Shown here piece after piece: positions 1 through 17,426 of a stretch of 64,000 nt of DNA; within the stretch, counting starts at the first letter, position 1, and each line of letters opens with the position of its first letter. The DNA lies in NCBI GenBank assembly GCA_963706445.1, contig OY970160.1, positions 1,568,001-1,632,000 of the forward strand, read 5' to 3'. The notes below the pieces were generated by a model, which was not told where the DNA came from, searched no databases, and saw only the letters and a program-made list of their open reading frames with translations. Position numbers and translations under genes: made by a program. Source of the stretch: an uncultured Nitrososphaerales archaeon (GTDB lineage Archaea > Thermoproteota > Nitrososphaeria > Nitrososphaerales > Gagatemarchaeaceae).

Positions 1-1538
1 GGGTACGGCACCTTGACGAGGATCTGGAACCTGGAAAGCTCGTCCTTCAGGTCGACCCCCTGATGGAGGCTCGGGGATATCAGGACGGACTCGTCCCTGG
101 AACCGTGGGCTTTCAGCAGGGCGGGTCTCGAAGACACCCCCTCTGTGCTAAAAAGCCTCGCCCTGTTCTGGGGAGACACGTGTTCCCTGATGTACCTGTC
201 CTGGGCGTAGGAGGTCGTGTGGACGATCCCCCGCTCTCCCCGATGTCTCGTCATGATTTCGTCTACGGCCATGGCAATCTCCCCCATATGAGCGTCCATC
301 GACTTCATGCTCAATGAAGCTACGGCGAGAGAGTAGATCCTCCTGTTCTCGACGGGAAACGTCGATTCCTTCACCCTGATGAAGGCCGCCTCTCTCTCCG
401 GGACGCCGAGGGTCTTGCAGAAGACCTCCTTGGAGAACACCGTGGCGGACATGAACAGCACGATATCGGCTGCGTCGAAGAGCCAGCCAGTGTAGGACCC
501 GACATCCAAGGGCTGGAAGACGACTTCCTCGATAGAAGCCCCGTCGTTCGACCTCCGAACCTTGTCCACCACCCAGTTGGCGGGATTGCCCTCCAAGTCC
601 TCAATGAAGGAGTCTAAGGATGCCAGAGAGCTCTTGCACGAAGCCACTTGGTCCTGGACTGCGTCATCTTCGATGTTCTCTCCAATGTAGCGCTCTAGCC
701 TCCTTTTCGCATCGGCGAGCTGATCTGCCCAGGCCGGGACTACCTCGCCCCTGTCCGAGATGACTGGGTCTGCGTTCTCCCCGCTCGGCCTGTAGTTCTG
801 GAGGAGCGACCTCCTCAGCGAGAATGAAGTGAAGCCTACCATCTGCTTCTCAAGGTCGTGAGCTTCGTCGCAAACGAGCAGCCTCCGCCGCTTGATGTCC
901 TGAGTGTACCGCAACTCGGTTAGAAAGAAGGGGTAGTTCGCAACCATCACCGGCCCCCTGAACGAATCCCACTTCTGGGCGTAGTAGTAGCAGAGCTTGC
1001 CATCTTCAAGGTGCTCACACTTCGCGTCCCTCCTGCACGCGCCCAGCTTGTGCTCCTCGTACTCCTCGAATGTCAAGTAGTGGGGGCACTCTGTGAGCTT
1101 CCAGTCGACCTGACACCTTCCTTGGCTGCATGGGAGGTTCCTCCCTGTCGAGGTAGGCACGAGGCACGTGAAGTTCGCCTTGCCGATCACCACAGGGAAG
1201 CGGAAGTCCGACGAGTACTGGTCTTGAAGCTGTTTCGTGGATGTTAGCAGGTAGGCTGAACCGAGGTGTTTGCTAAGGGCGGCGGCTATCGCGGACTTGC
1301 CGAACCCGACGGGTGCTTCGAGAATTATGAACTTCTTGGACTGGGCCAGAGCATCTTCGACTTCGGCGAGGATTTCTCTCTGCCCCGTCCTCATGGTCTT
1401 GAATGGGAAGCTCTCCAGAAGGGTGGGCTTTCGTGAGGCCTCACTTGGAACCGGTGCGCCGCACTTGGCACAGAATCTAGTTGGCCCGCCACCTACGGGC
1501 AATTTGAGGCGAGAGCCGCACTTTGTGCAGAACTTCAA
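1..1538 (-). CDS. DinG/Rad3(XPD)-family ATP-dependent helicase with N-terminal zinc ribbon (3' end outside window)
   Basis: Manual translation from TTG at 1538: MKFCTKCGSR...FCAKCG, Q motif RTGQRE, Walker A EAPVGFGKS, Cys-rich Fe-S region, LLVCDEAHD, SPSLHQGVDLKDELSRFQILVKVPY at the edge. Missing from the ORF track because it has no stop in the window. Confidence 0.9.
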   Translation of the reverse strand, partial: MKFCTKCGSRLKLPVGGGPTRFCAKCGAPVPSEASRKPTLLESFPFKTMRTGQREILAEVEDALAQSKKFIILEAPVGFGKSAIAAALSKHLGSAYLLTSTKQLQDQYSSDFRFPVVIGKANFTCLVPTSTGRNLPCSQGRCQVDWKLTECPHYLTFEEYEEHKLGACRRDAKCEHLEDGKLCYYYAQKWDSFRGPVMVANYPFFLTELRYTQDIKRRRLLVCDEAHDLEKQMVGFTSFSLRRSLLQNYRPSGENADPVISDRGEVVPAWADQLADAKRRLERYIGENIEDDAVQDQVASCKSSLASLDSFIEDLEGNPANWVVDKVRRSNDGASIEEVVFQPLDVGSYTGWLFDAADIVLFMSATVFSKEVFCKTLGVPEREAAFIRVKESTFPVENRRIYSLAVASLSMKSMDAHMGEIAMAVDEIMTRHRGERGIVHTTSYAQDRYIREHVSPQNRARLFSTEGVSSRPALLKAHGSRDESVLISPSLHQGVDLKDELSRFQILVKVPY

Positions 1539-1896: not shown

Positions 1897-3771
1897 TCAA
1901 ATCAGCTCCATCCTCGACCTGAAGAACTTCTCCGTGTCCTTGTCCGTGAAGTATGCGTAACACCCTTTCATCCCCCTGCTGAAGAGCACCCGGTAAGTGT
2001 GCTTGGTCAGGTCGGTGAACCTGTCCTTGTCTCGCTTCACCACCGCGTCGTGGGAGCTCTCCGGGTGCCCCTCCCAGGCCTGCCTGTCGAAGTTGTACCT
2101 GAGGTCAGGCCCCATGATTACCCCCGCGTAGTCGAACTCGAATCCCTGGGCGTTATAGACGCACCCGACCTGGTTTATCCCATTGGGGTCGTCGGCCCAG
2201 AGCGTGGCCTTGGGGATGCCCTTCGCAAGCTTCCTAGCCTCTGGCCTGGCATCCCATGGCCTCCTGTACTCTCCGATGACCACGTCGTCGTTCAGGTTCC
2301 CCTCGGAATCGGGCATCGACCAGTGCCAGCAGTACCCGGCCGTGACCCTCCCGGTGTTTCCCTCGGTCACCTTCTCTCTGATGGCCGTTTCCACTGCCTC
2401 GGGGCTCTCGAAAATCTTGAAGTCGAACTCCTCCTTCCTCTCCCAAATCACGTTGGCCGTCCTCCGTATCCCTATGGTGTTGTCCACCCAGTTGACGAAG
2501 GCGTCCGACCCGTTGCACCTGAACTGCGCCTGCAGCTCGTACTCCAGGACCTTGCAGCTCATCCTCTCGGCGCTTTCTTTGATGTATTGGACGGAACCGA
2601 TTTCCCCGGGACGGACAATTTGGTAGTCGTCGATGAAAAAGACCGTCGACTTCGCCGCCTTGATCAGCTCGTCAATCTGGGGCAGCCCGGTCCTGTCCTC
2701 CTTCCTGGTGAACCTGCTCACGCTCGTCTGCCTGATCCTGTGGGCCTCGTCGGCCAGGAGGACGTCCACCGCGTCTCTCTCGGCGTTGGGGTAGCTGTTG
2801 AAGTACCTGAACTGGATTGAGCCCAGCTGGCCTATCTTCTTCCTGAGGGTCTCGGTGAAGGCCCGGGACCCGGTCGCATACTGGGTGTTGTACCCATTGT
2901 GGAGCAGGTCTGCCATCACGTTGACCGCGATGAGCGACTTCCCGGTGCCTGGTCCTCCCTTTACAATTACGACGGTCTTCTGCTTGTCGTGGAAGCCACT
3001 CTTGGCCATGGTGAGAATCTTGTCGTAGACTACGAGCTGGTCGTCGAGCAGAATGTACTCGTTCCTCCCTTTGATCATTGCGTAGACATTCTCCATCAGC
3101 TTCTTGCTGGGGCGATACTTGCTCTGCTCGATCCTCTTGAGCACGTCGGCCCCCTGACCTCCCTCGAGCCGTTGGACGAGGCGATCCTTCATCTTGGGCA
3201 CGTCCTCCGCGGTGAAGACGGGACATCTAGCCCTGACCTCGTCGAACTTTGGGGAAAACAGCTCGTCCTCGGAATAGTAATTGTAGTTGTGCAGGTACGT
3301 GCAAGCGTCGAGGGCAACAGGACTGTGGTCATCGTGGAACGCGGTGTGCGTGTTCGCCAGGTACAACTTGTACCGCTCGACCTGGGCCGAGGGGTGGAGC
3401 ACGTCCCTTTGACCTCCGCCGACCCAGGTGCTCACTTCGTTCTCGCCGTCTGCCGCCGAGCATTTCTCCCACTGCTTCAGCTCGATGATCACGGCGCCAT
3501 CAGCATCACGTCCATCCCTTCCGCAGATTAGACAGTCGAGCCTGAGCGACGAGAGCGGGAGTTGGTACTCCAGCATGACGCCGTGGTCGAGCAGGTTGGC
3601 GTACTGGAAGACCTGGGAGAGCGCCCTCAGCGAGTTCCGCCAGGAGTTGACCTCCCCGGGCGATGGATTGTAGCGAAAATACTCGAAGAAGGCGAGCCTG
3701 AGCTTCTCCGCAATCTGGTTCTGGACTGTGTCCTCGATGAACTGAGGGGATAGGCCAGAATATAGTCGCAT
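1897..3771 (-). CDS. DUF2075 (Schlafen group-3-like) DNA/RNA helicase with N-terminal nuclease-like domain
   Basis: N-terminal EYQLP..RLDCLI..IIELKQW (PD-(D/E)xK-like), Walker A GGPGTGKS, Walker B LLADEAHR, C-terminal QGFEFDY and YRVLFSRGMKGCY. Confidence 0.88.
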   Translation of the reverse strand: MRLYSGLSPQFIEDTVQNQIAEKLRLAFFEYFRYNPSPGEVNSWRNSLRALSQVFQYANLLDHGVMLEYQLPLSSLRLDCLICGRDGRDADGAVIIELKQWEKCSAADGENEVSTWVGGGQRDVLHPSAQVERYKLYLANTHTAFHDDHSPVALDACTYLHNYNYYSEDELFSPKFDEVRARCPVFTAEDVPKMKDRLVQRLEGGQGADVLKRIEQSKYRPSKKLMENVYAMIKGRNEYILLDDQLVVYDKILTMAKSGFHDKQKTVVIVKGGPGTGKSLIAVNVMADLLHNGYNTQYATGSRAFTETLRKKIGQLGSIQFRYFNSYPNAERDAVDVLLADEAHRIRQTSVSRFTRKEDRTGLPQIDELIKAAKSTVFFIDDYQIVRPGEIGSVQYIKESAERMSCKVLEYELQAQFRCNGSDAFVNWVDNTIGIRRTANVIWERKEEFDFKIFESPEAVETAIREKVTEGNTGRVTAGYCWHWSMPDSEGNLNDDVVIGEYRRPWDARPEARKLAKGIPKATLWADDPNGINQVGCVYNAQGFEFDYAGVIMGPDLRYNFDRQAWEGHPESSHDAVVKRDKDRFTDLTKHTYRVLFSRGMKGCYAYFTDKDTEKFFRSRMELI

Positions 3772-3774
3772 GCC

Positions 3775-4140
3775 CTATAGTTCGTTGTACTTCTTACTTG
3801 ATCCTTTTGCCTTCTCGACAGGATACTTCCTCGCATTTTCCCGTATCTTCTCCTCGAGTGAGCTGGAGACGTCAATGTCGTACTTCTGGGCAAGCCTCAG
3901 CGCAAAATAGAAGATATCAGCAAGCTCATATCGTGCAGCCTTGGCAAATGACCGGTCCCTAAGCATCACGTCTATCTCTGATTCGGACTTGAATCGGAAC
4001 ATCTCCAGGAGTTCAGAGGCCTCTGTCACTATCCCGATCGCGAGGTCCTTGGCGTTGTGGAACTGGTCCCAATCGCGTTCTTCAGTGAACCTCTTGACCA
4101 TCTCTTTGAGGTCGGCTACTCTTGTCTCAGGGTCCTTCAT
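3775..4140 (-). CDS. MazG-like nucleotide pyrophosphohydrolase (dCTP pyrophosphatase type)
   Basis: ERDWDQFHNAKDLAIGIVTEASELLE...ELADIF...KIRENARKYP; 3 bp from the DUF2075 gene. Confidence 0.9.
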   Translation of the reverse strand: MKDPETRVADLKEMVKRFTEERDWDQFHNAKDLAIGIVTEASELLEMFRFKSESEIDVMLRDRSFAKAARYELADIFYFALRLAQKYDIDVSSSLEEKIRENARKYPVEKAKGSSKKYNEL

Positions 4141-4159
4141 GAGCCCTTCGCGCAAGCTA

Positions 4160-4184
4160 GCTACGTGTTACGTAGCGCTTTAAA
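4160..4184 (-). promoter_or_regulatory. Inverted repeat (GCTACGT-N3-ACGTAGC) next to the TATA box of the mazG-DUF2075 operon
   Basis: Perfect 7-3-7 palindrome at 4160-4176, between TTTAAA (4179-4184) and the ATG at 4140. Confidence 0.5.
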
Positions 4185-4290
4185 CACAACGAGATTCGCT
4201 TGCGGAGGCCTGGGGTGGTGATCCCAGCTACGGTCGCCGAGCCTCGTCTTTGCTGAAAGACTCAAATCAAGCAGTGGTAGGTATCTGAAC

Positions 4291-5229
4291 GTGGATAACT
4301 GGCCTTCGATTCTTGGGAAGTTCCTCTTTCAGACTCGGTCCGGGGATCTCAAGTTTGCGACATACCCAAAGGAATGGCAAGGTCTGAAGCTGAGGGTGTC
4401 CTTCGGGCAGGGGGTGGCAGCTAGAGTTCCCTGGATGGCATTCATCGCATCAGAGATGCAGGTCAGCAAAGGCTTCTACCCGGTCTACTTGTTCTATCGG
4501 GAACTCGACACCCTCGTGTTAGCTTATGGCGTAAGCGAGACTGAAGAGTTCGCCAAGAAATGGCCGCCTGAAATTGTGAATGATACTCAGACCATTAGGG
4601 AGTTCTTCGGCAAGGACGTCCCAAGGTATGGAGACTCCTTTGTCTACAAAGCATACAAGGTGAGTTTGGATGAAGGCGTTGTCCAATACACGTCCCCAAA
4701 TGGCAAACCAGTCTCGGATAAGGACTTGGAAGTTGATCTGTCTAGGATCATTGAATATTTCAAGAAGGTTGTTTCGACTGAAGTAGCAAAGCCAGATTCG
4801 GCCATCGGTCAGGGGATTTTCTACATGGAAAAGCAGTTAGAAGACTTTCTGATCAATAACTGGGATAACACGGAGCTCGGCAGGAAGTACAGCTTGATTG
4901 AGGAAGAAGGCGAGGTAATAAGTCGGCAATTCAAAACTGATGTCAGTTCCATAGACATCTTAGCGAAAGACAAGAAAACGAACTCCTACGTGGTCATCGA
5001 ACTAAAGAAGAACCAGACAAGTGATGATACTGTTGGTCAAGCGGCTCGGTATATGGGTTGGATCAAGGCGAAAAAAGGTGACAATAACGTGAAGGGAATC
5101 ATAATAGCGGCAGAGTTTGATGAGAAGGTAGAATATGCTCTCCGAGTTGTTCCGAACGTGGAAGTCTTCCTGTCCAAGGTCGACTTCCAGCTGATGGCAC
5201 CCAGACCAGAACAAACACTTCGAAACTAG
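4291..5229 (+). CDS. McrB N-terminal (DUF3578-like) methylcytosine-reader domain fused to NucS/DUF91-like PD-(D/E)xK endonuclease
   Basis: N-terminus LRVSFGQG..RVPWMAF..GFYPVYLFY..LVLAYGVSET..RYGDS parallels E. coli McrB-N (recalled); C-terminus MEKQLEDFL..IDILAKD..VVIELKK..VGQAARYMGW. Visibly more AT-rich than its neighbours. Confidence 0.85.
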   Translation: MDNWPSILGKFLFQTRSGDLKFATYPKEWQGLKLRVSFGQGVAARVPWMAFIASEMQVSKGFYPVYLFYRELDTLVLAYGVSETEEFAKKWPPEIVNDTQTIREFFGKDVPRYGDSFVYKAYKVSLDEGVVQYTSPNGKPVSDKDLEVDLSRIIEYFKKVVSTEVAKPDSAIGQGIFYMEKQLEDFLINNWDNTELGRKYSLIEEEGEVISRQFKTDVSSIDILAKDKKTNSYVVIELKKNQTSDDTVGQAARYMGWIKAKKGDNNVKGIIIAAEFDEKVEYALRVVPNVEVFLSKVDFQLMAPRPEQTLRN

Positions 5230-6265: not shown

Positions 6266-6384
6266 TTAACAGTAGTACCGGTTACTACGAAGCAACCTGC
6301 AGCATCCTTCTATTTAAAGGGCGAACCCGCGTCTCATCAAAATTGGCACTGTGGCGAGGCCCTGAAGCCCTGGCCGGCGTAATT

Positions 6385-6801
6385 CTAGGACCATACGCCT
6401 CCAAATCTGGGCGGGCTGCCGTTGCTCACCACAAACATGCCAGTAAGGTTTGAGCCGGTCTGAGGGGTCGTGCTCAGCGAGCCGCTGACATCGCAGGAGA
6501 CAATTGCCGCAGAGCCTCCAGCTGGAACGACGTTGGCTCCTCCGATCTTGCCATCGTATGACTGTCCGAGATAGGTCAGGCTACAACCTGTTATCGACCC
6601 GTTGGCTGTCCCTGAATTGGTCAGGGTGGTTGAGCACACGCGAGTCGAAGAGTTACACGATACCTGCTGGACTGAAATCAGAGCCTCGTTTGGAGGTTCG
6701 CAGCCGCAAACGACAAATATGCTCCAAGAGAGGAAGATCACAACTAGGGCAACGCCAACGACTGGAATCAACGCGATGATCGCTTTCGTCCTCAGTTTCA
6801 A
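6385..6801 (-). CDS. Membrane-anchored extracellular hypothetical protein
   Basis: N-terminal hydrophobic helix followed by a Ser/Thr/Cys-rich beta domain. Confidence 0.7.
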   Translation of the reverse strand: MKLRTKAIIALIPVVGVALVVIFLSWSIFVVCGCEPPNEALISVQQVSCNSSTRVCSTTLTNSGTANGSITGCSLTYLGQSYDGKIGGANVVPAGGSAAIVSCDVSGSLSTTPQTGSNLTGMFVVSNGSPPRFGGVWS

Positions 6802-6979
6802 CCGGGTGTCACCAGGAACTGCAACTTGCGAATCAGATGCTCGTCCAATACTTACGGAATATGGAACCTGCGTCTATCCCCTTGGTCTTCCCTGACCCCC
6901 AAGGGCCATCATGCATTGACAAACTGAACCTGGAGTCCATAATGATTAAGGTCGAAAGACGTGTCAATCAGGGCTGACA

Positions 6980-7681
6980 TTGTCCTTCTGCACGTCCTGC
7001 GGAAACTTAGTCCCTGCTGCCGCGCGCTACTGTCCTCTATGCGGGTCGAGTACTGCTGAACTCGTCGTCTCCAGTCCCTCAAGATCCGTCCAGTTGACCC
7101 TTCAGAGTCCGGTTCCCGAGAGGCCCCGGGTCGAAGCCGTCAACGCTGTTGCCGTTCAGGCAGAGTTGAGCCCCAAAGATTCAGAGGGAATGCGCCCTCT
7201 GAGCGATTCGGAATACACCAAAATCAAACGGATGGGAGCGGGGAAAAGGAACGCTGCCGTCCTGGTGGGATTCATCGGTGGGATGCTTGGAGTGATAACG
7301 ATGTTCTCTCCCCCCGCCGACCCTACAGTTCTCTCCATTGAAGTCATAATCCTCGAGATCGTCGGCCTGGTGCTCGCTTCGCTCTCCCGGAGAGCGAGGA
7401 TGATCGTTTCGCGGACCATAGAGCTTGGGACGGCATCTGAAGCCTATGGCGTTGCCAGGAGCCTGGCAGACGGGACCGATGCGATCGACATGGGCGCCGC
7501 ACGGTTCCTCCCCCTCGGTAAGTCGAATGAGTTCTCTGAGCTCACAAAGGCGGAGAGGGGACCGGTCAGGGTGGTCTTCGCCGGGCCCACCAAGGAGAAG
7601 AATCCCCACGTCTTGCTCCTTGAAGCGGGCGCCAAGAGTTTCCTGTCACCTGTTCCCTGTTCATGGGTGAGAACAACTTGA
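6980..7681 (+). CDS. Zinc-ribbon membrane protein
   Basis: FCTSCG..YCPLCG N-terminus and two predicted TM helices. Confidence 0.7.
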   Translation: MSFCTSCGNLVPAAARYCPLCGSSTAELVVSSPSRSVQLTLQSPVPERPRVEAVNAVAVQAELSPKDSEGMRPLSDSEYTKIKRMGAGKRNAAVLVGFIGGMLGVITMFSPPADPTVLSIEVIILEIVGLVLASLSRRARMIVSRTIELGTASEAYGVARSLADGTDAIDMGAARFLPLGKSNEFSELTKAERGPVRVVFAGPTKEKNPHVLLLEAGAKSFLSPVPCSWVRTT

Positions 7682-8769
7682 GAGTCCCATACATTCACAG
7701 GCTGCTCATCCTTGCGCTCGTCATTGTGATGGCCTCCATGGTCGTCTCGCGCCCGGTCATGGCGGCGGCCGAGGTCGCCTTCGACCCGAACGGCAATCCG
7801 AACGCAAATCCGGACTTTAGCTTCCCAGCTGGCGCGACGATCTATTTCGTTGTGACCTTGGACAGCGGGTGCAGCTCGGCCCAGATCTACTGGGGTGACG
7901 GCAGTTCAGACACCGGGAGTTCCAGCACGGGAGTCGTTCATTTCACGCATCAGTATTCTGACGCCGGTACCTACCCGGTGAATGCCGTTGACATGTGCGA
8001 CGGCCAGAGTCTGAACACTCTGGACGTTGTGGTGGAAGGCTTGAGTTTTCCCATTAACATTTACAGTGCCTCATTCCCGGTGAGCGTGGCGGCTGCCATA
8101 GGCGGATTCGCGATAATGGCGTTGGCGAACCCAAGGGTGAAGGGGAGCCAGAAGCGCGCCAAGGGTTCGCTCTCAGGCCTCGCGGGCAATCAGAGCCCAT
8201 CGGGTAGGAAGGCCCCGGCTTGGGGTTACAAGCGTCCCGTAGGATACACTGCCGGGCCGGCTCAGCCGACCGGTCAGACAGGCGGAGTCCCATCGCCCAT
8301 CAGCGGGGGAGTGGGCTATTCCGTCGACCTCGGAAGAAACATCGGAATGCCCATCGGACCGCAGCAGGGGATCCCAATCACTGGGGTGGGTGCGAGTGTC
8401 GCGACGCCTGAGGTCTCCCCTCTTCCGTATCTCAACGCCGTGTGGGGGCCAAACGGTGTCACCCTCACCTGGGGACAGCCTCAGTTCGACCAGAATCAGT
8501 ATTCATTACTCGGATACCAGGTGTCCATCCTGACCTACGGTCCCAACAACACCATGCCAGTGCAGACCGTCATATCAGTTCAGCCGCCGGGCCCAGGCCA
8601 GGTCAACCTGCCTTTTGACCAGACATTCAGGTATAACTCCGGAGGCGACATCGCTGGCTTCCGCGTGGACCCGATCTTCGGCAAGATCGTAGACGGTACT
8701 CAGACCGTAGGCAAGGGGAGTGGTCTCGTCGCCAAATTTGGCAGCTCTGTCGGGACCTTCGGACTCTGA
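7663..8769 (+). CDS. PKD-domain surface protein with TM segment and Pro/Gly-rich C-terminal region
   Basis: Signal peptide, IYWGDGS..FTHQYSDAGTYPV PKD motif, TM segment, low-complexity linker, beta-rich tail. Confidence 0.75.
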   Translation: MGENNLRVPYIHRLLILALVIVMASMVVSRPVMAAAEVAFDPNGNPNANPDFSFPAGATIYFVVTLDSGCSSAQIYWGDGSSDTGSSSTGVVHFTHQYSDAGTYPVNAVDMCDGQSLNTLDVVVEGLSFPINIYSASFPVSVAAAIGGFAIMALANPRVKGSQKRAKGSLSGLAGNQSPSGRKAPAWGYKRPVGYTAGPAQPTGQTGGVPSPISGGVGYSVDLGRNIGMPIGPQQGIPITGVGASVATPEVSPLPYLNAVWGPNGVTLTWGQPQFDQNQYSLLGYQVSILTYGPNNTMPVQTVISVQPPGPGQVNLPFDQTFRYNSGGDIAGFRVDPIFGKIVDGTQTVGKGSGLVAKFGSSVGTFGL

Positions 8770-8783
8770 TAGGTCTCTCTGGC

Positions 8784-8859
8784 TCCAGGCTCAGACCCAA
8801 GCCTTTGGCTTCCAAGCCAGTCACGTCTAACGAGACTGGCCTGAGGTCTAGATTACCGA
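8784..8859 (-). pseudogene. Fragment of a LEA_2-family gene, repeat of 11577-11652
   Basis: 66/76 nt identical to 11577-11652; translates as GNLDLRPVSLDVTGLEAKGLGLSLE versus GNLQLRSVSLDVTGLNANGMGLSLD. Confidence 0.8.
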
Positions 8860-8971
8860 GAGCCGCCTGGGGCTCGCAGAAGGTCGGTGTGAGGGGCACC
8901 TGATACCCTTTAGTGGGGGCGCAGGCAGGGGCGTCACGAACCCAGCCAGACTGGCGCTCCTGATAGTCACG

Positions 8972-9433
8972 GTGGCGATAGTGGCTGCTGCGGGCCTCCT
9001 GGTAGCTTTGCCATACTTCACAGGCCAAAGGACAAGCTCTAGCTCTGTCGGGACGACCATCTACTCGACAGTGACGACCAGCGCCAACTCTACCTACACC
9101 TTCGGGTGCCCAGCGAACTCCACCTGCGACTTCTTCATATCTCTCACGATCAACGTCACCTGCACCGGATGCTCCTTCGCCGGAGAGTACACCGCTCCCA
9201 ACGCCGATTCCAGTCCGACCCATGTGTCGGGGAGCGGCAACCAGTCATACACCGCGAGCAGCTTTGATTCTCCCCTCAACCTAACCTGGAACATATCGAA
9301 GGGCTCGTCGGGGGGGACCCTGGAGGTGAAGGTCATCAGCCAGGATGGGCAGGTGTATTACGACAGGAGCACCGGCGCCCCATTTGGGACCCTGGAGGGC
9401 CGATGGGACGTCACCGTTGCGCCAGACTCGTAG
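8972..9433 (+). CDS. Secreted/membrane-anchored Ser/Thr-rich protein (true start probably upstream)
   Basis: Hydrophobic N-terminus and an Ig-like beta-rich domain with paired Cys. Confidence 0.7.
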   Translation: MAIVAAAGLLVALPYFTGQRTSSSSVGTTIYSTVTTSANSTYTFGCPANSTCDFFISLTINVTCTGCSFAGEYTAPNADSSPTHVSGSGNQSYTASSFDSPLNLTWNISKGSSGGTLEVKVISQDGQVYYDRSTGAPFGTLEGRWDVTVAPDS

Positions 9434-9546
9434 GAAAGGACCTATCCTCTGTGAAGTCGACGGCGCAATTCGGGTGGCTGTTCTGCCTTCTTTCATCTTG
9501 TTCTCCTGACTAGCATTATAACCCCTAGCGAAGTCCGTTCTCAAAC

Positions 9547-10785
9547 ATGAGACGTCCAGGCACGACATCGGTTACCCTAGCCTTCATGGTCGTGGTGATA
9601 CTGGTAGCGTCCATGGCTGCGGTTATGGCCACCCAGACCTCCGTAACGCCTGGGACGACGTCCAGTCAGCGGACTTCGGAGTCCTCCAGCGTGTCCACAA
9701 CAGCAGAGAACGGCCTCCGGCTCAGCCTCGGCGCAAGCCTCTCGTCGGTCTATTCCGGCGGCTCGATAACCGTCACCCTCTCAGACTTCAACACCCTGGA
9801 TGTGACGAACTCGCCCACGATGATGCCCCTGCCCACAATTGGGGGAGTGACTCTGAGTATGGGGCCCTGCAGCCAGCTCCCGCTGGGGTTCGGCGTAGCA
9901 GGCGGATACTACGGATTGGGGAACGTCTCTCAGGCTTCGCTTCTTAACCTGTACAATCCAGGAGCACTCTACGGCTGCCCCGCGCTCTTCCCCGTTGGGT
10001 ACTTCGCCTTCTCCCCCCTCAGCGACAATGTCACGCTCTACAGCCCCCAGCCCTCCGGTCCAGGCAACGCCACAGTCCCCACTCGCATGTGGACCGCGCC
10101 TGACTCCTTCGATCAGAACTTCTCCGGCTACTGGACTGGACAGGGATTCCCATTGGGGAGCGACACCTTCCACAGCTTTGAGCCTGGAGTCTACACCCTG
10201 ATTGGAGCGGACGCCTACGGGCAGTTGACCGTCGTCCACTTTTATGTCCCGGCTGGCACCACCACGACCGGAGGGACGAGCGTTTCAGTGCCTTCGCTTA
10301 ACGGGCTCGAGCTACTCGTCAGCCTGAACGCCACGCAGAGCCTTCCCGGACAGCAGGTCCAGGTGAACCTCAGCGAATTCAACACCCTGCCCGCTGCCAA
10401 CAACGTCTCTGCGTCCAGGGCCTGGCCGGTCTCGGTCGCGCTCGGCGCCTGCGAGAACATGTACGCTCAGCCCTTTGGAATAGCCGTCTACTCCGGACAC
10501 GTCGATGGTCAGAACCTCTCCCAGGGCCAGCGAGTGGAGATATTTCCACCCGTGCCCTGTCCGCTGTACCTCCGGCTCGTTACAGGGTATCTTTTCCAGC
10601 CGCAGAGCGACCTCGCCGTGATCCTGCCGAACTTGGGGGCCACGCCGTCCCCTCTCGTCGGGAGCGTCAACGTCGGCATGAACTACAGCTCGCTTCAGGG
10701 GCAGTCTCTCCCTGCCGGGACGTACACTGTAGTTGCTGCGGACGAGTGGGGCGCCCTGGCCTTCGTCTACTTCCAAGTGGCTTAG
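9547..10785 (+). CDS. Surface protein with two tandem homologous domains
   Basis: MRRPG plus TM; repeats NGLxLxxS..VxLSxFNTL..C..P(L/F)G..GxYTxxxADx(Y/W)GxL. Confidence 0.8.
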   Translation: MRRPGTTSVTLAFMVVVILVASMAAVMATQTSVTPGTTSSQRTSESSSVSTTAENGLRLSLGASLSSVYSGGSITVTLSDFNTLDVTNSPTMMPLPTIGGVTLSMGPCSQLPLGFGVAGGYYGLGNVSQASLLNLYNPGALYGCPALFPVGYFAFSPLSDNVTLYSPQPSGPGNATVPTRMWTAPDSFDQNFSGYWTGQGFPLGSDTFHSFEPGVYTLIGADAYGQLTVVHFYVPAGTTTTGGTSVSVPSLNGLELLVSLNATQSLPGQQVQVNLSEFNTLPAANNVSASRAWPVSVALGACENMYAQPFGIAVYSGHVDGQNLSQGQRVEIFPPVPCPLYLRLVTGYLFQPQSDLAVILPNLGATPSPLVGSVNVGMNYSSLQGQSLPAGTYTVVAADEWGALAFVYFQVA

Positions 10786-10815
10786 GTTAGAATTTTCTGG
10801 AGAGCTGGACAAGCA

Positions 10816-11232
10816 TCAGGGGAGACCCTCGACATACTTGGCGAAGGAGTTCAGCTCCCCCATGGCTGAGGATTCGGACTCCGCTTTCCCCTGGGTCTTC
10901 AGAATCCAGGACCAGCGGCCTTTGAGTTGGACGTCCATCGACGCCGACACCCTGGTCCCCTCGGGAACCTCCTCGAATCTGACGACGCTTCTGATCCGGG
11001 TAAACCTTGTCTTGCCCTCGGATTCGACCCTTTCCGGTGGGAAGAGTTTCATCTCCCTGGCCCTCGTGCGGCCACCCGAGGTCCCCTCCAGGTACACCGT
11101 GTTCCCCTCCCTCCTGGAGACCTTCATTCCGTGCTTCTGCCTCGACCACCTTTGCATAGATTCAAAGTCGGTGTAGGTGGAGTAGGCCTTGTCGCGGGAG
11201 ACCCTGACGACGAGGGACACCTCGAAGCGCAT
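10816..11232 (-). CDS. SRPBCC (START-like) family protein
   Basis: Length and pattern VSRDKAYSTYTDFESM..FEEVPEGTRV..C-terminal helix. Confidence 0.7.
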   Translation of the reverse strand: MRFEVSLVVRVSRDKAYSTYTDFESMQRWSRQKHGMKVSRREGNTVYLEGTSGGRTRAREMKLFPPERVESEGKTRFTRIRSVVRFEEVPEGTRVSASMDVQLKGRWSWILKTQGKAESESSAMGELNSFAKYVEGLP

Positions 11233-11281
11233 GCTCGAGGCAAGCCGCCCAAGATGCCATTAAGGGGTTTAGTCCGGGACG

Positions 11282-11776
11282 CTAACCGGTAGCGAATTCG
11301 AACGAGACCGAGAGAGAGAGCCCGCCGACCTCGATCCTGGCGGTCCCGTTGGCCTTCCAGTCCACGTTCCCGAGGTTCCCGATGTAACTCCCCGTCGTCC
11401 ACAGGGCCGACCCCCAGGCGACTGTGACGGGAAAGACGAGGGTCTGGGAAGTCCGTGAAGCGAATACGTAGTCAGCGGCCGACAGCCCTTCCCCAAGGTA
11501 GTGACCGTCGGCATAGATCGAATAGTTGGCCGCCTCCAGTGTCGCTCCGAAGCCGTTGGGGTTGAAGACGACCGCATCCAGGCTCAGACCCATGCCATTG
11601 GCGTTCAAGCCAGTCACGTCTAACGAGACTGACCGGAGCTGAAGATTTCCGATCAGAGCCCCCTGTTGGACGCCGGCCGGATGGGTCTCAGAGCCGGCGA
11701 TGGCGTACAACGGCACGACAGCCAGGATTATCAGCAGGAACACCGTGAAAGTGCGGAGTTCCCTGCCTGAAGACAA
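11282..11776 (-). CDS. LEA type 2 family protein
   Basis: Signal anchor followed by VFNPNGFGATL..YSIYADGHYLGEG. Confidence 0.75.
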   Translation of the reverse strand: MSSGRELRTFTVFLLIILAVVPLYAIAGSETHPAGVQQGALIGNLQLRSVSLDVTGLNANGMGLSLDAVVFNPNGFGATLEAANYSIYADGHYLGEGLSAADYVFASRTSQTLVFPVTVAWGSALWTTGSYIGNLGNVDWKANGTARIEVGGLSLSVSFEFATG

Positions 11777-11920
11777 CTGAGGTTTCTGCGGTTCATTCCG
11801 CGATTAAAGGATTGGGAGTCGGGCGACCCCGTTTTTCGGAGTCCTGTCGAAAGGTAGGTCTGCCTCCTCAGGTTCATTGTCGCTCTCGCGAGGAAAGTAC
11901 TTACACTACTTGAATGTGAA

Positions 11921-12160
11921 ATGATGTTGATGGCAAAGGCGTTCGTTATGATCAACACCGACCTCGGCACAGAGGATGTATTACAGTCAGAACTGAAGAA
12001 GGTCGAAGGCATCGTCGGGGTCTTTCAAGTCTTCGGGGTCTACGACCTGGTGGTAGTGGTCGAAGCCGAGTCGGAGGAGGAGCTCAAGTACATAATCTTC
12101 TCAAGGATTCGTACGCTGAAATACCTGAGATCCACGCTCACGCTCAACGTATTAACCTGA
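11921..12160 (+). CDS. Stand-alone Lrp/AsnC ligand-binding (RAM) domain protein
   Basis: KAFVMIN..VFGVYDLVVVVEA..IRTL..STLTL; no HTH. Confidence 0.9.
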   Translation: MMLMAKAFVMINTDLGTEDVLQSELKKVEGIVGVFQVFGVYDLVVVVEAESEEELKYIIFSRIRTLKYLRSTLTLNVLT

Positions 12161-12255
12161 TTGAGAACGCAACCCCGGCCTGGAGTGACCCTAGGTTCGA
12201 GCCTCTCCGGGCCCGTCGAACTCCATAACTACCTTCGAATCCTCACGCATCTTCA

Positions 12256-12813
12256 ATGCCGCAAACGAAGGCAATAGTGAGCATCGAGAACGTTGTCGCT
12301 TCTGCCTCGATTAATCAGAGGGTCGACCTCAACCTAATAACCAAGAACTTTGTCGACGTAGAATATCATCCCGACCGGTTCCCTGGACTAGTATTCAGGC
12401 TGAAGAACCCGAAGACTGCTACCCTGGTCTTCAGCTCGGGGAAGATGGTCTGCACCGGCGCGAAATCGGAGGAGCAGTCGAGAAAGGCCGTGGCAGAAGT
12501 CGTAAGGAGGTTGAGGAAAGGGGGCATCCCCATCAGGAATGAGGCTGAGGTGGTGATACAGAACATGGTGGCATCTGCGAGTCTGGGGGGGAGGATCCAC
12601 CTGGAGGAAGCGGCCAGGAAGTTACCAAAATCGATGTACGAGCCTGAGCAGTTCCCCGGTTTGATCCACAGGATGGCGGACCCCAAGACGGTGATACTTC
12701 TCTTCTCCTCCGGGAAGCTCGTCTGCACCGGAGCGAAGAGGGAGGGAGATGTCTACAGGGCCGTGAACAACCTGCACGCGACGCTCGAGGAACTGGGGCT
12801 CATGGCCTACTGA
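12256..12813 (+). CDS. tbp: TATA-box-binding protein
   Basis: Two TBP repeats: IENVVAS..YHPDRFPGL..FSSGKMVCTGAKS and QNMVAS..YEPEQFPGL..FSSGKLVCTGAK. Confidence 0.98.
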   Translation: MPQTKAIVSIENVVASASINQRVDLNLITKNFVDVEYHPDRFPGLVFRLKNPKTATLVFSSGKMVCTGAKSEEQSRKAVAEVVRRLRKGGIPIRNEAEVVIQNMVASASLGGRIHLEEAARKLPKSMYEPEQFPGLIHRMADPKTVILLFSSGKLVCTGAKREGDVYRAVNNLHATLEELGLMAY

Positions 12814-12878
12814 CCCTCAGCGCGCCCATGGGTTTCAGAAAGAACCGGCCTCCAGAGCCCGTTGGGCCTGGGGGAAGT

Positions 12879-13040
12879 CTAGCCTTTCGATTTGTTATCT
12901 TCTCGCTTGGCGGACTTGCGGAGTCGGTTCAGTTCGGCAATCTTTTCCTTGTATTCCTTTTTCTTCTTCCTGTTTCCCTGTGCGCGCGCCTGGTCGTAAA
13001 GCTTCCTCAGTTTCTCTTCTTCTAGCTCGTACTCGGACAA
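12879..13040 (-). CDS. Small charged helical protein (53 aa), not in ORF track
   Basis: TTG start, MSEYELEEEKLRKLYDQARAQGNRKKKKEYKEKIAELNRLRKSAKREDNKSKG; ATAAA box about 35 nt upstream. Confidence 0.6.
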   Translation of the reverse strand: MSEYELEEEKLRKLYDQARAQGNRKKKKEYKEKIAELNRLRKSAKREDNKSKG

Positions 13041-13142
13041 CTTCGGAAATGGAGCCGTAGGAGCATGATTATGACTTTATTGGTCACAGGAGAAGTCGTT
13101 GTAGTCCGGAGCATGTTCAGCTAGGAGAATCTGTGGAATCAG

Positions 13143-13421
13143 CTACATCTCTAGATGGACTTGGACCACGCGGTCTATCTCCTCTCCTGCCTTGACCACC
13201 TTGAACTCTATCAAGAATATGGCTTTGCGGGGCTGGACGGAGCCTTCGGTCTCTCCTCTAAATGTCACCTTGACCCCCGACTTTGATTCGGTCTTCGACT
13301 TCATGGATGCTAGACAGAGGTCGTAGATGGTTCCTTTCGAAAGACCTAGTCTTTGATCTATGTATTCGAGGTAACCCCTTGATGTGAGGTGTTCCCCCCT
13401 TGTACCCTGACGGTAACTCAT
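13143..13421 (-). CDS. Hypothetical protein
   Basis: 92-aa ORF directly downstream of cdc48 on the same strand. Confidence 0.55.
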   Translation of the reverse strand: MSYRQGTRGEHLTSRGYLEYIDQRLGLSKGTIYDLCLASMKSKTESKSGVKVTFRGETEGSVQPRKAIFLIEFKVVKAGEEIDRVVQVHLEM

Positions 13422-13436
13422 GTGCCAACATCCGAC

Positions 13437-15605
13437 CTAGCTGTAGTAAGGCACCGCGACCTTCTCCATCGGGTTACTCTCCCTGGAAGACCTCACCTTC
13501 TTCGCTGCCTCCTGGAAATGCTCGTAGGTTACGATTGCTTCATCCCAATGCTTCTTCGCGTCCTCGGGCCGCGGGTACTTGGCGATGTAGGCCTGAAGAA
13601 CTATGGAAACTGCCGTGTTCACAAGTGCGGCCAAGTCTGCTCCGTTGAACCCCTCGGTCGTTTCAACGAGAAGCCCGACCTCTACCTCCTTTGAGATCGG
13701 CTTCCCCTTCATGTGTATCCGGAGGGTCTCTTCCCTCGCCTTCTCATCGGGAAGTGGCGTGCTGATTATTTTGTCGAAACGTCCTGCCCTCAAGAGCGCC
13801 GGGTCGATCATGTCGATCCTATTCGTTGCAGCCAGGACGACGACCCCCTGGAGTGGTTGTATTCCGTCGAGCTCTGTCAAGAGCTGACTGACCACTCCTC
13901 CCGTCACAGCGCCCCCTTCACCCATCCCTCTACCCGGCGCTATCGAATCGATCTCATCGAAGAAGATTACGCATGGGGCGGCTTGCCTTGCCCGTCTAAA
14001 GACCTCTCGCACTCCTCTTTCAGATTCGCCCACCCACTTACTGAACAGCTCTGGGCCCTTGACGCTGATGAAGTTCGCTTCACTCTCAGTAGCTACAGCC
14101 TTGGCCAGGAGGGTCTTGCCCGTGCCCGAGGGACCATGAAGCAGGATGCCCTTCGGCATGACGTAGCTCAGCGTCCTGTAGAGATCAGGGTACTTCAGCG
14201 GCCATTCGACCGCCTCCTGAAGCTCTCTCTTCACGCCATCAAGGCCCCCGATCTCGGACCACTTCACATCTGGCGTTTCAAGATACACTTCTCTCATCGC
14301 CGACGGGGTGATGTCTTTCAGCGACTTCTGGAAGTCGTCCCCCGTTACAATCAGCTTGTCGAGTATCTCTGGGCTCAGCTTCTCTTCCTCGAGCTTCAGT
14401 TCTGGTAGAATCCTTCTGAGGGTCTTCATGGCAGCCTCTTTGCAAAGATATTCGAGGTCAGCCCCGACGAACCCGTGCGATACTGAGGCGAGCTTCTCAA
14501 GGTCGACGTCCTCCTGTAGTGGCATGTGACGCGTGTGGATCTGCAGTATCTCGTATCTTCCCTTCTTGTCCGGGATCTTGATCTCGATCTCCCTGTCGAA
14601 CCTGCCTGGCCTTCGGAGGGCGGGGTCCAGTGCGTTATGTCGGTTGGTAGCAGCTATTACTATGACTTTGCCCCTGGCTTCGAGGCCGTCCATCAAGGAG
14701 AGCAACTGGCTGACAACTCTCCTCTCGACTTCTCCAGTCACCTCTTCGCGCTTTGGAGCTATCGAGTCGATTTCGTCGATGAAAATGATGGTAGGAGCCT
14801 TCTCCTTTGCCTCTTTGAATATCTCTCTGAGTTTTGCCTCTGATTCGCCGTAGAACTTGCTCATGATCTCTGGACCACCTATCGGAATGAAGTGAGCGCT
14901 GGTCTCGTTGACCACGGCCTTCGCCAAAAGCGTCTTTCCGGTTCCCGGAGGACCGTACAGGAGAATCCCTTTTGGTGCTTCGACACCCAACTTCTCGAAG
15001 ATCTCCGGGTGTCTGAGCGGGAGCTCGATCATCTCCCTCACCTTCTGGACCTCGGCCTTTATGCCGCCGATGTCTTCGTAGGTTACCTGCGGTACTCCCC
15101 TCGGGGTCGCGCCCTTCTCGGAAAAGACGAAGGTCGTTCTCTGAGTTATCAGTACCGCCTCCGCGACCGGACTCGCTCCGACGACCTGGAAGGTGAGCCT
15201 TCCGCCGAAGTAGGGGACCACCACGTTGTCCCCCTTCGTCACCGGGATGCCTTCGAGGGCGTCAGCCAAGTATCTCTCGTCGATGGGTGGCACTGGTTCG
15301 AGCGGGGCGACCACGACCTTCTCCGCCGGCGGGGCTGTGATTTTCTTTACGATGACTACGTCGCCGATGGCGACGCCGCCGTTGTTCCTGATGAGGCCGT
15401 CGATCCTCATTATTCCTCTGCCCTCGTCTGAGGGGTAGAGAGGGAGGCACTTCGCGACGGTTTTTCTCTTTCCCTTGAACTCGATGACGTCCCCGGTCGA
15501 AGCGCCCAAAGCATCCATCGCGGCATAGTCTATCCTCGTCACGCCTCGACCCACGTCGCGGGTGTATGCCTCTAGTACCTTGAGCTGGGCTTGCTGCTGG
15601 CTCAC
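13437..15605 (-). CDS. cdc48: CDC48/VCP family AAA+ ATPase
   Basis: N domain [14 protein letters not shown] and two AAA modules ([33 protein letters not shown]); start reassigned to GTG 15605. Confidence 0.97.
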
Positions 15606-15781
15606 TATTCTATCACTGCTAGACAGTCCTGCGCCTACAGCACCGCCTATTAACCAAAATTGGCAAACCCGACCCTTGAGCGCGATCCTCTGCACGCGTA
15701 TCCCGCAGAATTACCAGAGCCCTTGTCTCGTTGTGCTTATAGCCATCTAGTGCCACTTCGAGAGAGGGTGTCTGGCGAGAG

Positions 15782-15961
15782 ATGAGTACGAGGGCTAAGA
15801 AGGAAGGACGGAAGCAAAACAAAGCTACTGACGAGTTGAGGGAGGAGGTCGAAATGCTAGACATCATGCTCTCATCATTGGTCGACGTTCTCGAGGAGAA
15901 GGGGGTCGTTGGCCATGACGAATGGAAGAGGAGAACAAAGGAAAGGCTAAGTTCGAAGTAA
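15782..15961 (+). CDS. Small helical hypothetical protein (59 aa), divergent from cdc48
   Basis: MSTRAKKEG..EMLDIMLSSLVDVLEEKGVVGHDEWKRRTKERLSSK; below the ORF-track cutoff. Confidence 0.7.
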   Translation: MSTRAKKEGRKQNKATDELREEVEMLDIMLSSLVDVLEEKGVVGHDEWKRRTKERLSSK

Positions 15962-16032
15962 GGAGTATTTGGGGGCAGTCCTCATTGGGGTAGCTCGCTT
16001 TCAAAGGATGAGGGCCTCTGCACGCTGACCTG

Positions 16033-16275
16033 TCAGGCAGTCTTGTATGAGATGATCTTGCCGTCCTTGTCGTTCACGATTATCTCCTTCTTGTCTCTCG
16101 CCGGCTGCCCGATGTCGGCTGTCACCTTCCATTCGGCTTCTCCTTCTATCGCCACGGCGGAGGTGACCCTGATGTTGTCGAAGCCTTCGTCTTCGGTCAG
16201 GAACTTCCTGGCCACGGCGATAGCTTCGGAGACGGATAGGTTCAACGCGTCCTCTTCCCGGCCATCTTTCTCCAA
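16033..16275 (-). CDS. Small PepSY-like protein
   Basis: SVSEAIAVARKFL..WKV..EIIVNDKDGKIISY; start reassigned to TTG 16275. Confidence 0.65.
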   Translation of the reverse strand: MEKDGREEDALNLSVSEAIAVARKFLTEDEGFDNIRVTSAVAIEGEAEWKVTADIGQPARDKKEIIVNDKDGKIISYKTA

Positions 16276-16334
16276 TGGTAGCCGGGGTTCGATACTGTTA
16301 ACTCTTCCGAGGGGCACCTGCGGAGCGACTCCAG

Positions 16335-17054
16335 TCAGGGCGATATCCTTGAAATTGCGTCGGCCACGGAGGCCGTGATTTCCTGTCGTTCTTTGACAAG
16401 CTGTACTTTCTCCAACCTCTCGCTCTGCAAGGCTCCTTGACTTTGCTTCAGGGACTCCAGGGCCCTCCACTCCTCAGCAAACGGAGACTCCGGGGAGTGC
16501 TGATCGACTGACTTCAAGATTTTCTGTTGTAATGGTATCTCGTTGGCTAGACCGTCTAGTCTCGACTCGAGCTCCTTGATATGGGATTCCGCGATTTTTG
16601 GAGCCTTCGGCTTCCCGACGAAGACGCGTCTGAGAAATGAACCGGAGCGCTTGTCCTCGGCCGGTGTGGAAATCCTTCTTTGTTCCTCTGCAAGTTCAGC
16701 GGAACTTCTCTCCTGCTCGCCCTTGAGCTCAGCGATTTTTGAAACCAACCCTGTTCTCCCGGTTTCAATCTTGCCCTCGACTTCGGCCAACTTCTGCCCG
16801 AGTTCGGCAATACCCTCGTCGATGGAAGAGGTGGAGATCGGTCGTGAAAGGAAGCTCTCCATTTCGCGCCGCTTCACGTGGTAATCCGAGGTCAGTTTCC
16901 CCTCCCCCATTTTCTCCTCGAACTCGTCCAACAGGATGTTTACGCCCTTCGTCCAGTTCTCTAGAGAATAGCCCCCGGGTTCCGTTGAGAACTTCTGTTG
17001 TCCGAGCTTGTTCAGGGCGGTAATCGTTCTGCTCTTCAGCGCTTCGTAGTCCAT
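16335..17054 (-). CDS. Coiled-coil hypothetical protein
   Basis: Glu/Lys/Leu heptad-rich 239-aa ORF starting MDYEALK. Confidence 0.75.
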   Translation of the reverse strand: MDYEALKSRTITALNKLGQQKFSTEPGGYSLENWTKGVNILLDEFEEKMGEGKLTSDYHVKRREMESFLSRPISTSSIDEGIAELGQKLAEVEGKIETGRTGLVSKIAELKGEQERSSAELAEEQRRISTPAEDKRSGSFLRRVFVGKPKAPKIAESHIKELESRLDGLANEIPLQQKILKSVDQHSPESPFAEEWRALESLKQSQGALQSERLEKVQLVKERQEITASVADAISRISP

Positions 17055-17115
17055 TGTTGGGGTCTCCGGCAGCCTGATCTTCCGCTGGTGGAATGACTGG
17101 CCCTTCATTCCCTTT

Positions 17116-17205
17116 CTAGTTGGGAGGTGCCCCTTTGCGCGCTCGTCTTTCCTCTTTGCTCCGCCTTACTTTCTCTTTCTTTTTCTTCTTCCCTTCTCTT
17201 CCCAA
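17116..17205 (-). CDS. Lys/Arg-rich microprotein (29 aa), copy A
   Basis: MGREGKKKKKEKVRRSKEERRARKGAPPN; TTATTA box 25-30 nt upstream; paralogue at 20890 differs mostly at synonymous sites. Confidence 0.7.
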   Translation of the reverse strand: MGREGKKKKKEKVRRSKEERRARKGAPPN

Positions 17206-17327
17206 GGCCCTCCTCCGATTTGACTGGTCTAATAAGACCAGAGTAAGACCTCCTGCCTGTAAAACAGACGAGCCGGACCATGATGCTCACACTTAATACA
17301 GGCAGAAGTTCCGCTTGGCTGATTGTA

Positions 17328-17426
17328 ATGGCAGTGTGTGCAAAATGCGGCAAAGAAATCCCGGCTGGGCAGGAAGTCAAGAAAGGCTTCCTCATGAAGA
17401 AGACCTACCACAAGGATTGCGCCTAG
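17328..17426 (+). CDS. Zinc-finger microprotein (32 aa; CxxC..HxxC, half-LIM-like)
   Basis: MAVCAKCGKEIPAGQEVKKGFLMKKTYHKDCA; TTAATA box about 30 nt upstream. Confidence 0.75.
   Translation: MAVCAKCGKEIPAGQEVKKGFLMKKTYHKDCA

Follow-up and report, generated by a model that had tools for sequence, protein, structure and literature searches.

An McrB-N reader domain joined to a NucS-like nuclease in a Nitrososphaerales archaeon: a predicted single-chain modification-dependent endonuclease

SRA-HNH enzymes are an established class of restriction enzymes that depend on 5-methylcytosine (5mC) or 5-hydroxymethylcytosine (5hmC). Those of the TagI type share their design with the EVE/PUA-HNH enzymes VcaM4I and TspA15I and with MspJI (SRA-like domain plus PD-ExK nuclease): a base-flipping reader of modified cytosine is combined with a small nuclease, and there is no methylase partner (PMC6765204, where SRA/PUA-type reader-HNH fusions are discussed). 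MspJI, AbaSI and TagI serve both as phage-defence genes and as tools for mapping 5mC and 5hmC. In EcoKMcrBC, a GTP-dependent type IV system of Escherichia coli K-12 that restricts DNA with 5mC, 5hmC or N4-methylcytosine (4mC), the McrB-N reader domain (3SSC, 3SSD, 3SSE and 6GCD-F) is accompanied by an AAA+ GTPase and McrC. Here we analysed a 64,000-nucleotide stretch of DNA (hereafter the window) from an uncultured Nitrososphaerales archaeon, in which the open reading frame (ORF) at 4291-5229 joins an McrB-N domain to a NucS-like nuclease. A first-pass annotation made from the sequence alone had proposed that this fusion is a one-gene type IV restriction enzyme acquired horizontally by an archaeon.

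The fusion is a new domain combination of the known reader-plus-nuclease design. Its reader domain is homologous to that of EcoKMcrBC and carries the same pocket and phosphate-clamp residues, but both the GTPase and McrC are missing and the score against the McrB equivalog is 66.5 bits, far below the cut-off of 637; membership of McrBC was rejected on these grounds. Since the nuclease lies on the same chain, McrBC-type translocation and collision-dependent cleavage cannot apply. Compared with the SRA/PUA enzymes and MspJI, the reader has the McrB-N fold, and the nuclease is a PD-(D/E)xK domain of the NucS/YhcG type rather than an HNH or MspJI-type domain. END-Mag, a one-gene defence against modified phages, combines an iEndoIII sensor with a 'NucS-like' PD-DExK nuclease (Yee et al. 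2025 preprint, PMC12191111); its sensor, an inactive EndoIII/Ogg1-like domain, targets modified G, and END-Mag was likened to the fusion by description only. The PADLOC entry PDC-S02, itself only a candidate system, has the nuclease module in common with the fusion but a different N-terminal sensor. NucS/EndoMS (2VLD, 5GKE) shares the C-terminal PD-(D/E)xK core, the D/E/K residues and a QxxxY motif. It also has an N-terminal domain that the fusion lacks, and the distribution and context of the fusion are those of a mobile defence gene. Orthology with NucS was rejected because that domain is missing and the equivalog cut-offs are missed by a wide margin.

Reader and nuclease domains of the fusion protein

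The ORF is uninterrupted and comprises 312 codons with a GTG start. Its reading frame is closed 23 codons upstream of the GTG. In the family alignment the N-terminus VDNW lined up column for column with MDNW of the homologues, indicating that the GTG start is credible. The features of the fusion are as follows.

4291-5229, + strand: McrB-N reader plus NucS-like nuclease, whole ORF, 312 amino acids (Pfam, phmmer, family alignment)
4291-4776, + strand: McrB-N domain (PF12102, DUF3578/ADAM), putative modified-cytosine reader, residues 1-162 (Pfam, NCBIfam, phmmer, AlphaFold2/Foldseek)
Within the reader, + strand: pocket residues W48 (4432-4434), Y63, L67 and Y113, phosphate-clamp residue S37 and finger residue Q40 (alignment, PMC3424535)
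4777-4812, + strand: linker, residues 163-174, with a predicted local distance difference test (pLDDT) score below 50, variable across the family
4813-5196, + strand: PD-(D/E)xK nuclease of the NucS_C/YhcG_C type, residues 175-302 (Pfam, PADLOC, Foldseek, alignment)
Within the nuclease, + strand: D222 (4954-4956), E237 (4999-5001) and K239 (5005-5007), with Q250 and Y254 also invariant (family alignment, alignment with 2VLD)

The first-pass annotation had noted that the N-terminal ~165 residues track McrB-N, and profile, sequence and structure comparisons bore this out for residues 1-162. Pfam MrcB_N (PF12102) matched residues 30-161 with 39.4 bits (gathering cut-off 25), and the NCBIfam McrB model matched residues 22-128 (E 1.8e-18) with only its N-terminal 110 positions. 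A phmmer search against all PDB chains recovered E. coli McrB-N (3SSC and mutants) with an E-value of 1.7e-18, residues 14-132 of the query being aligned with residues 17-136 of the chain. When an AlphaFold2 model built from 35 family members (mean pLDDT 77.8) was compared with 20 McrB-N chains using Foldseek, E-values ranged from 9e-9 to 2e-7 and target-normalised template-modelling (TM) scores from 0.75 to 0.81. These alignments covered ~155-175 columns at a root-mean-square deviation of 3.3-4.1 Å and about 28% identity.

In EcoK McrB, the flipped 5mC sits in a pocket between one wall made up of W49, L68 and Y117 and an opposite wall of Y64, A59, S60 and the residue 82-85 backbone; Y64 and L68 read the 5-methyl group, and S38 and W49 clamp the phosphates (Sukackaite et al., PMC3424535). 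The first-pass annotation had named equivalents of W49, Y64, L68 and Y117, and alignment by tool confirmed them as W48, Y63, L67 and Y113, respectively. By the same means S38, S60, T85 and A59 corresponded to S37, S59, T84 and V58, and the backbone of residues 82-85 to V81-T84. In an alignment of 35 family sequences, S37, Y63, L67, Y113, S82, E83 and T84 were invariant, and W48 and S59 were nearly so. The finger residue Y41 of EcoK McrB is replaced by Q40 in the fusion and by Met in most of the family. Y41 intercalates in the EcoK protein but is not conserved among homologues, and its replacement may alter the flanking-sequence specificity (PMC3424535). With Q40 at this position, the flanking preference of the fusion is probably not R-mC (purine followed by methylated cytosine) and cannot be predicted from the sequence. 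McrB-N also flips unmodified cytosine and binds unmethylated sites weakly (PMC3424535).

In the C-terminal half, the annotated replacement of the GTPase by a NucS-like PD-(D/E)xK domain was likewise found. Pfam NucS_C (PF01939) matched residues 198-279 with 52.4 bits (cut-off 24) and YhcG_C (PF06250) matched residues 178-308 with 44.2 bits (cut-off 32.5), and a Pfam scan of the 312-residue protein gave no AAA_5 or AAA match and no NTPase domain. D222, E237 and K239 aligned with D160, E174 and K176 of Pyrococcus abyssi NucS (2VLD), which we take to be the catalytic residues of NucS. Together with Q250 and Y254 these three residues were invariant in the 35-sequence alignment, by which the nuclease triad is judged to be intact. 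Foldseek matched the nuclease domain to NucS/EndoMS (E 4e-6) and, more weakly (E 1e-3 to 6e-2), to the nuclease domains of Card1, Can2, Shedu and HamA. The NucS equivalogs scored well below their cut-offs (NF003270, 54.4 vs 216 bits; NF002876, 33 vs 252 bits) and were matched in their C-terminal part only. The PADLOC PDC-S02 models matched fusion residues 163-303 (E 2.4e-45 and 1.4e-37), the match being confined to model positions 164-306 of 308, that is, to the C-terminal half.

The two halves also occur separately at the level of 50% identity clusters. The McrB-N modules closest to that of the fusion are carried by McrB AAA_5 GTPases, an Mrr_cat nuclease and GmrSD, all of them type IV effectors. 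A nuclease module 60% identical to that of the fusion was found in P0138, whose N-terminal half is unrelated and gave only sub-threshold matches in the ESM Atlas. Such sensor swapping is a pattern characteristic of modification-dependent enzymes. A profile search of the whole genome of the host (1.82 Mb, one contig, 95% complete) identified the fusion as its only MrcB_N gene and its only NucS_C gene. McrC (PF10117), which the first-pass annotation had reported missing nearby, was found neither among the neighbours nor anywhere in this genome.

Predicted activity and the host methyltransferase

We predict, with a probability of roughly 0.7, that the fusion is a single-chain, NTP-independent, modification-dependent (type IV-like) restriction endonuclease. 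A flipped modified cytosine would be read by the McrB-N pocket, and the tethered nuclease would then cut close by, using Mg2+ but no GTP-driven translocation of the McrBC kind. Two copies or two sites would probably be needed for a double-strand cut. If this prediction is true, a compact, GTP-free enzyme of ~307 amino acids built on the McrB-N pocket would be a candidate for a new tool; the mutant structures 8IJO and 8IK4 demonstrate that this pocket can be re-engineered.

Several points weigh against this prediction. The substitution Y41Q weakens DNA binding by EcoK McrB (PMC3424535), and Q is the residue that the clade of the fusion carries at this position. In the AlphaFold2 model, confidence is lowest in the pocket loops 57-60 and 83-89. 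The host possesses a single C5 cytosine DNA methyltransferase (PF00145, 198.8 bits), located 47 kb upstream beside an integrase. The recurrent linkage to MazG-like and DUF2075 genes described below allows that the copy in the window needs partners. Furthermore, one PDC-S02 representative (N-terminal type unspecified) gave no protection against T7, T5 and T4 in E. coli B (preprint 10.1101/2024.09.26.614923). That null result is expected for unmodified or glucosylated targets; it is uninformative for a 5mC/5hmC-dependent enzyme and is not support for one. Finally, binding, cleavage and modification dependence are all properties that we infer for the fusion family, which also counts against the prediction.

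Because a C5 methyltransferase is present in the host, the fusion must either leave the 5mC context of the host itself uncut or be restrained; EcoK McrBC and Dcm offer a comparable case of coexistence. The methylation motif of the host enzyme bears on its compatibility with the fusion. The enzyme (399 amino acids; in the genome region C1:1522800-1526800, L080) is flanked by a tyrosine recombinase and by a divergent unannotated ORF of at least 447 amino acids, which is open-ended in the locus fetched; the group may be a mobile restriction-modification unit. Apart from this gene, the genome gave one weak N4/N6 methyltransferase match and no match to the N6_Mtase family.

The fusion might instead be a conventional restriction enzyme, one that cleaves unmodified DNA and from which methylation by this distant C5 methyltransferase protects the host. 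The weak binding of McrB-N to unmethylated sites would allow such an activity, and the genome does contain one C5 methyltransferase with an integrase and the unannotated ORF as neighbours. However, the methylase lies 47 kb away beside a candidate partner of its own, and no DNA methyltransferase was present among the genes within 10 kb of the fusion. In a scan across the family that took in the two closest ORFs to either side of the fusion (149 ORFs at 42 loci), no DNA methyltransferase was found among the 25 commonest of 133 Pfam families, these 25 being the ones inspected. The methyltransferase families among these 25 were of small-molecule types only and occurred in two ORFs; at one family locus a Dam-like methyltransferase lies 2 kb away in a prophage-like context. 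The same argument from the absence of a methylase was used by Lutz et al. for PUA-type enzymes (PMC6765204). As the methyl-contacting residues Y63 and L67 are also invariant, we give a conventional restriction enzyme only a slight chance.

Distribution and horizontal acquisition

The fusion belongs to a large, widespread, highly conserved and patchily spread family that is already catalogued in databases. At E<=1e-3, 1703 clusters (90% identity) were retrieved from among 5.8 billion clustered proteins, the top match being the window's own protein. The best 120 of the 1703 matches were 58-100% identical and ~307 amino acids long, and nearly all of them had both domains. They are labelled 'DUF1016 family protein', 'PDDEXK nuclease domain-containing protein' or 'Endonuclease NucS/MrcB-like N-terminal domain', and literature searches found neither a description nor an experimental test of the family. 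With one genome taken per GTDB species, the full-length fusion was present at no fewer than 45 loci in archaea and bacteria, a lower bound because two peptide patterns were used for the scan. Archaeal hosts include Bathyarchaeota, Woese-, Aenigm- and Micrarchaeota and Thermoplasmata; bacterial hosts include many phyla of the candidate phyla radiation (CPR), SAR11, SAR86, Prochlorococcus, Marinimicrobia, Bacteroidota, Syntrophorhabdus and Dehalococcoidales. If the predicted activity is true, the family would explain how very small genomes, such as those of DPANN archaea, CPR bacteria, SAR11 and Prochlorococcus, can afford a type IV defence.

Archaea and bacteria were interleaved in the maximum-likelihood tree of the family. 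In this tree the window fusion paired with that of 'archaeon FK4.bin31' (80% identity, 100/100 support), beside a Bathyarchaeota group. The annotated archaeal host is in agreement with the TFIIB/TFB gene that adjoins the fusion locus and with nearest relatives of the fusion in Bathyarchaeota metagenome-assembled genomes. The gene is under purifying selection, with a nonsynonymous divergence (dN) of 0.12 from the 80%-identical relative and saturated synonymous sites. No tblastn match to the fusion was found in the INPHARED phages; in the PLSDB plasmids, tblastn matched the nuclease module alone, on other proteins.

Horizontal acquisition of an AT-rich gene, as proposed in the first-pass annotation, was supported for the window genome. 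The guanine-plus-cytosine (GC) content of the fusion is 47.6% compared to 58.1% for the genome (0.3rd percentile of 1427 ORFs), and at third codon positions (GC3) it is 0.583 compared to a genome mean of 0.734 (5.7th percentile of the same ORFs). At second codon positions (GC2) it lies at the 0.4th percentile. An explanation of the low GC as a mere effect of amino acid composition was considered and rejected: GC2 is indeed extreme, yet GC3 is low too. The 80%-identical relative has a GC3 of 0.585 on another host contig of about 57% GC, and since its GC3 is the same despite saturated synonymous sites, composition alone does not date the transfer. The stronger argument is the absence of the gene from congeners. 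Neither the 36 same-genus genomes nor 24 others of the order yielded a full-length homologue; they gave weak matches or nuclease-domain fragments only. Moreover, similarity to the contig of the closest relative (L001) covers exactly 1897-5210 of the window and nothing outside. When an empty site was sought in the congeners, the TFB gene alone was syntenic, so that neither an insertion boundary nor an att site could be placed.

One same-genus locus (L085, G033:C1:60419-60589) contains a 57-residue fragment that is 56% identical to the nuclease domain and interrupted by TAA; it may be a decayed relative.

Elsewhere, family members adjoin integrases, or sit within a prophage-like region or a ribosomal-protein operon. 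The last is an unusual site for a defence gene, in which a 62%-identical member (L097 5001-5924) lies between the L2 and L23/L4 ribosomal-protein genes on a 72-kb metagenome contig.

Such mobile contexts, the integrases nearby and the patchy distribution would also be expected of a nuclease that serves a mobile element in a selfish, toxic or other non-defensive way (for example a homing-type or addiction enzyme), or of a reader of a non-cytosine or RNA modification. The conserved residues, however, are those of a cytosine pocket, and no partner antitoxin or repeat structure was found. The dCTP-pyrophosphatase relative next to the gene and the SRA-HNH replacements, both described below, likewise point to modified cytosine in DNA, and we regard a selfish element or a reader of another modification as highly improbable.

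A role in DNA repair or genome maintenance, in which McrB-N would find damaged or mismatched host cytosines (for example deaminated 5mC), is barely more probable. The nuclease is NucS-like and its gene is the only one in the genome that bears NucS_C, and McrB-N can flip unmodified cytosine (PMC3424535). Nevertheless, the NucS N-terminal domain is missing and the NucS equivalog score of 54 bits is far below the cut-off of 216. A maintenance function also fits poorly with absence from 36 congeners, atypical composition, and variable or mobile contexts beside defence-type genes, and in relatives the place of the fusion is taken by an SRA-HNH fusion of the restriction type.

The MazG-DUF2075 gene pair and its reader-nuclease neighbours

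Upstream of the fusion, and divergent from it, lie a MazG-like gene and a DUF2075 helicase gene 3 nt apart. The features of this region are as follows.

3775-4155, - strand: MazG-like nucleoside triphosphate (NTP) pyrophosphatase, 126 amino acids, divergent neighbour of the fusion (best solved relatives DCTPP1/RS21-C6)
1897-3771, - strand: DUF2075/Schlafen-group-3 helicase, 624 amino acids, 3 nt downstream of the MazG-like gene (weak Nhi/AbiO-like PADLOC matches)
4160-4176, no strand: perfect 7-nt inverted repeat (spacer of 3 nt), located within the 135 nt between the divergent genes and 5 nt upstream of where the MazG-like gene starts
4179-4184: TTTAAA box, adjoining the inverted repeat

The inverted repeat at 4160-4176 and the TTTAAA box at 4179-4184 resemble a leaderless archaeal promoter with an operator.

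The best solved relatives of the MazG-like protein were dCTP pyrophosphatase 1 (DCTPP1/RS21-C6) structures (E 3.8e-18). DCTPP1 hydrolyses abnormal cytosine triphosphates, including 5-methyl-dCTP (PMC13510388, PMC4491611). The helicase gave weak PADLOC matches to Nhi, AbiO and PDC-S41, and its residues 1-260 had no match in Pfam or the PDB. The pair would probably act on the same kind of invader as the fusion, that is, on viruses with modified cytosine, for example through hydrolysis of modified dCTP. A literature search found no description of DUF2075 together with MazG, or of the three-gene block.

Between the window and its closest relative, synteny is confined to these three genes. All-against-all clustering of the neighbours at 45 loci identified the MazG-like and DUF2075 families as the only two recurrent families that are not housekeeping. 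Counting the window, linkage to the pair was found at 7 of 46 species loci, the other 39 being without it. At four of the linked loci (two in Saccharibacteria, one each in Falkowbacteria and Bacteroidota) the genes run MazG, DUF2075, fusion along one strand, 16-38 nt apart. Two further contigs show the divergent arrangement of the window. On the gene tree the linked loci are dispersed, and well-supported branches force at least three changes. Among seven sampled metagenome contigs, the MazG-like gene adjoins the fusion in three. One of these has the order MazG, helicase, Mrr_cat, fusion; in another, fusion, MazG and an HNH gene follow each other in an integrase-bearing element; the third is arranged as in the window.

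The pair also travels independently of the fusion. A MazG homologue was present in 9 of the 36 congeners, and at each of the five loci fetched (four from congeners plus a second copy in the host's own genome) the DUF2075 helicase followed it. The MazG-DUF2075 pair is a circulating module within the genus.

The second copy in the own genome (G000:C1:1535335-1537598; L103 4335-6598) is 71% and 49% identical to the window pair and has no adjacent fusion. In three of the fetched loci (L100, L102 and L103), small unannotated ORFs occupy the slot beside the pair and could be further reader-nucleases.

In two congeners (G024 and G025), the slot beside the pair is occupied by a 233-residue SRA-HNH fusion (L101 6393-7094, - strand; L104 5174-5875, - strand). 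Pfam matched SAD_SRA (E 2.6e-6) and HNH (E 4e-9) in these proteins, and the SRA domains of SUVH9 and SUVH5 were recovered from the PDB (E 8e-5). The two copies share 71% identity. One lies upstream of the pair on the same strand, and the other has exactly the divergent orientation of the fusion in the window. This positional replacement by a reader-nuclease of a known modification-dependent type provides independent contextual support for the predicted role of the fusion against modified cytosine. The swap also suggests a three-part cassette directed against cytosine-modified invaders.

Two further readings follow from this linkage. The first is an obligate three-gene system, in which the fusion works only together with the MazG-like and DUF2075 proteins, the helicase for example serving as the translocase that replaces the McrB GTPase. 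The shared syntenic block, the recurring divergent and one-strand arrangements and the linkage at three or more places on the gene tree all speak for such a dependence. On the other hand, the pair is missing at 39 of the 46 species loci and on 4 of the 7 sampled metagenome contigs, one contig has MazG but an HNH gene in place of the helicase, and same-genus genomes carry the pair but not the fusion. As the pair does not accompany most family members, the fusion can evidently work alone, and an obligate system is unlikely. Of the one-gene system proposed in the first-pass annotation, the part that stood is that most family members stand alone; for the window, its closest relatives and the linked loci, it has to be qualified by the association with the pair.

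The second reading is tentative, with the odds somewhat against it. The fusion may supply the reader-nuclease component, an interchangeable one, in a hitherto undescribed three-part defence that is directed at viruses with modified cytosine. MazG would destroy the modified dCTP precursor, the DUF2075 helicase would act on the invading DNA and the reader-nuclease would cut it, and the cassette would spread between archaea, CPR bacteria and Bacteroidota. As part of the same tentative proposal, the third component would be the McrB-N-NucS fusion in the window, SRA-HNH in sister species, and Mrr_cat or HNH elsewhere. The linkage to a dCTP-pyrophosphatase relative and the SRA-HNH swap predict that sanitation of the nucleotide pool is combined with cleavage of modified DNA against cytosine-modified viruses. 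The targets would include archaeal viruses, whose DNA modifications are barely known. A MazG/DUF2075/reader-nuclease cassette with interchangeable reader-nucleases is the part most worth following.

Other features were observed in the window. Compared to the congener G016, in which the TFB orthologue directly precedes a homologue of 17957-18368, the window has ~11.7 kb of extra sequence at ~6270-17950, and this second variable segment holds zinc-ribbon, PKD-domain and unannotated ORFs. The ORF at 3-1538 (- strand) encodes a DinG/XPD-like helicase with an N-terminal zinc ribbon that matched the PADLOC 'type IV CRISPR-associated DinG' model (E 1.5e-50); its homologue is not adjacent to the TFB gene in the congeners. 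At 49465-49716, ARAGORN predicted a 66-nt tRNA-His, for which Rfam gave a partial match (36 bits, model positions 10-63). On the opposite strand it predicted a 99-nt tRNA with an unassigned anticodon (Rfam 51 bits), which is probably an intron-containing archaeal tRNA.

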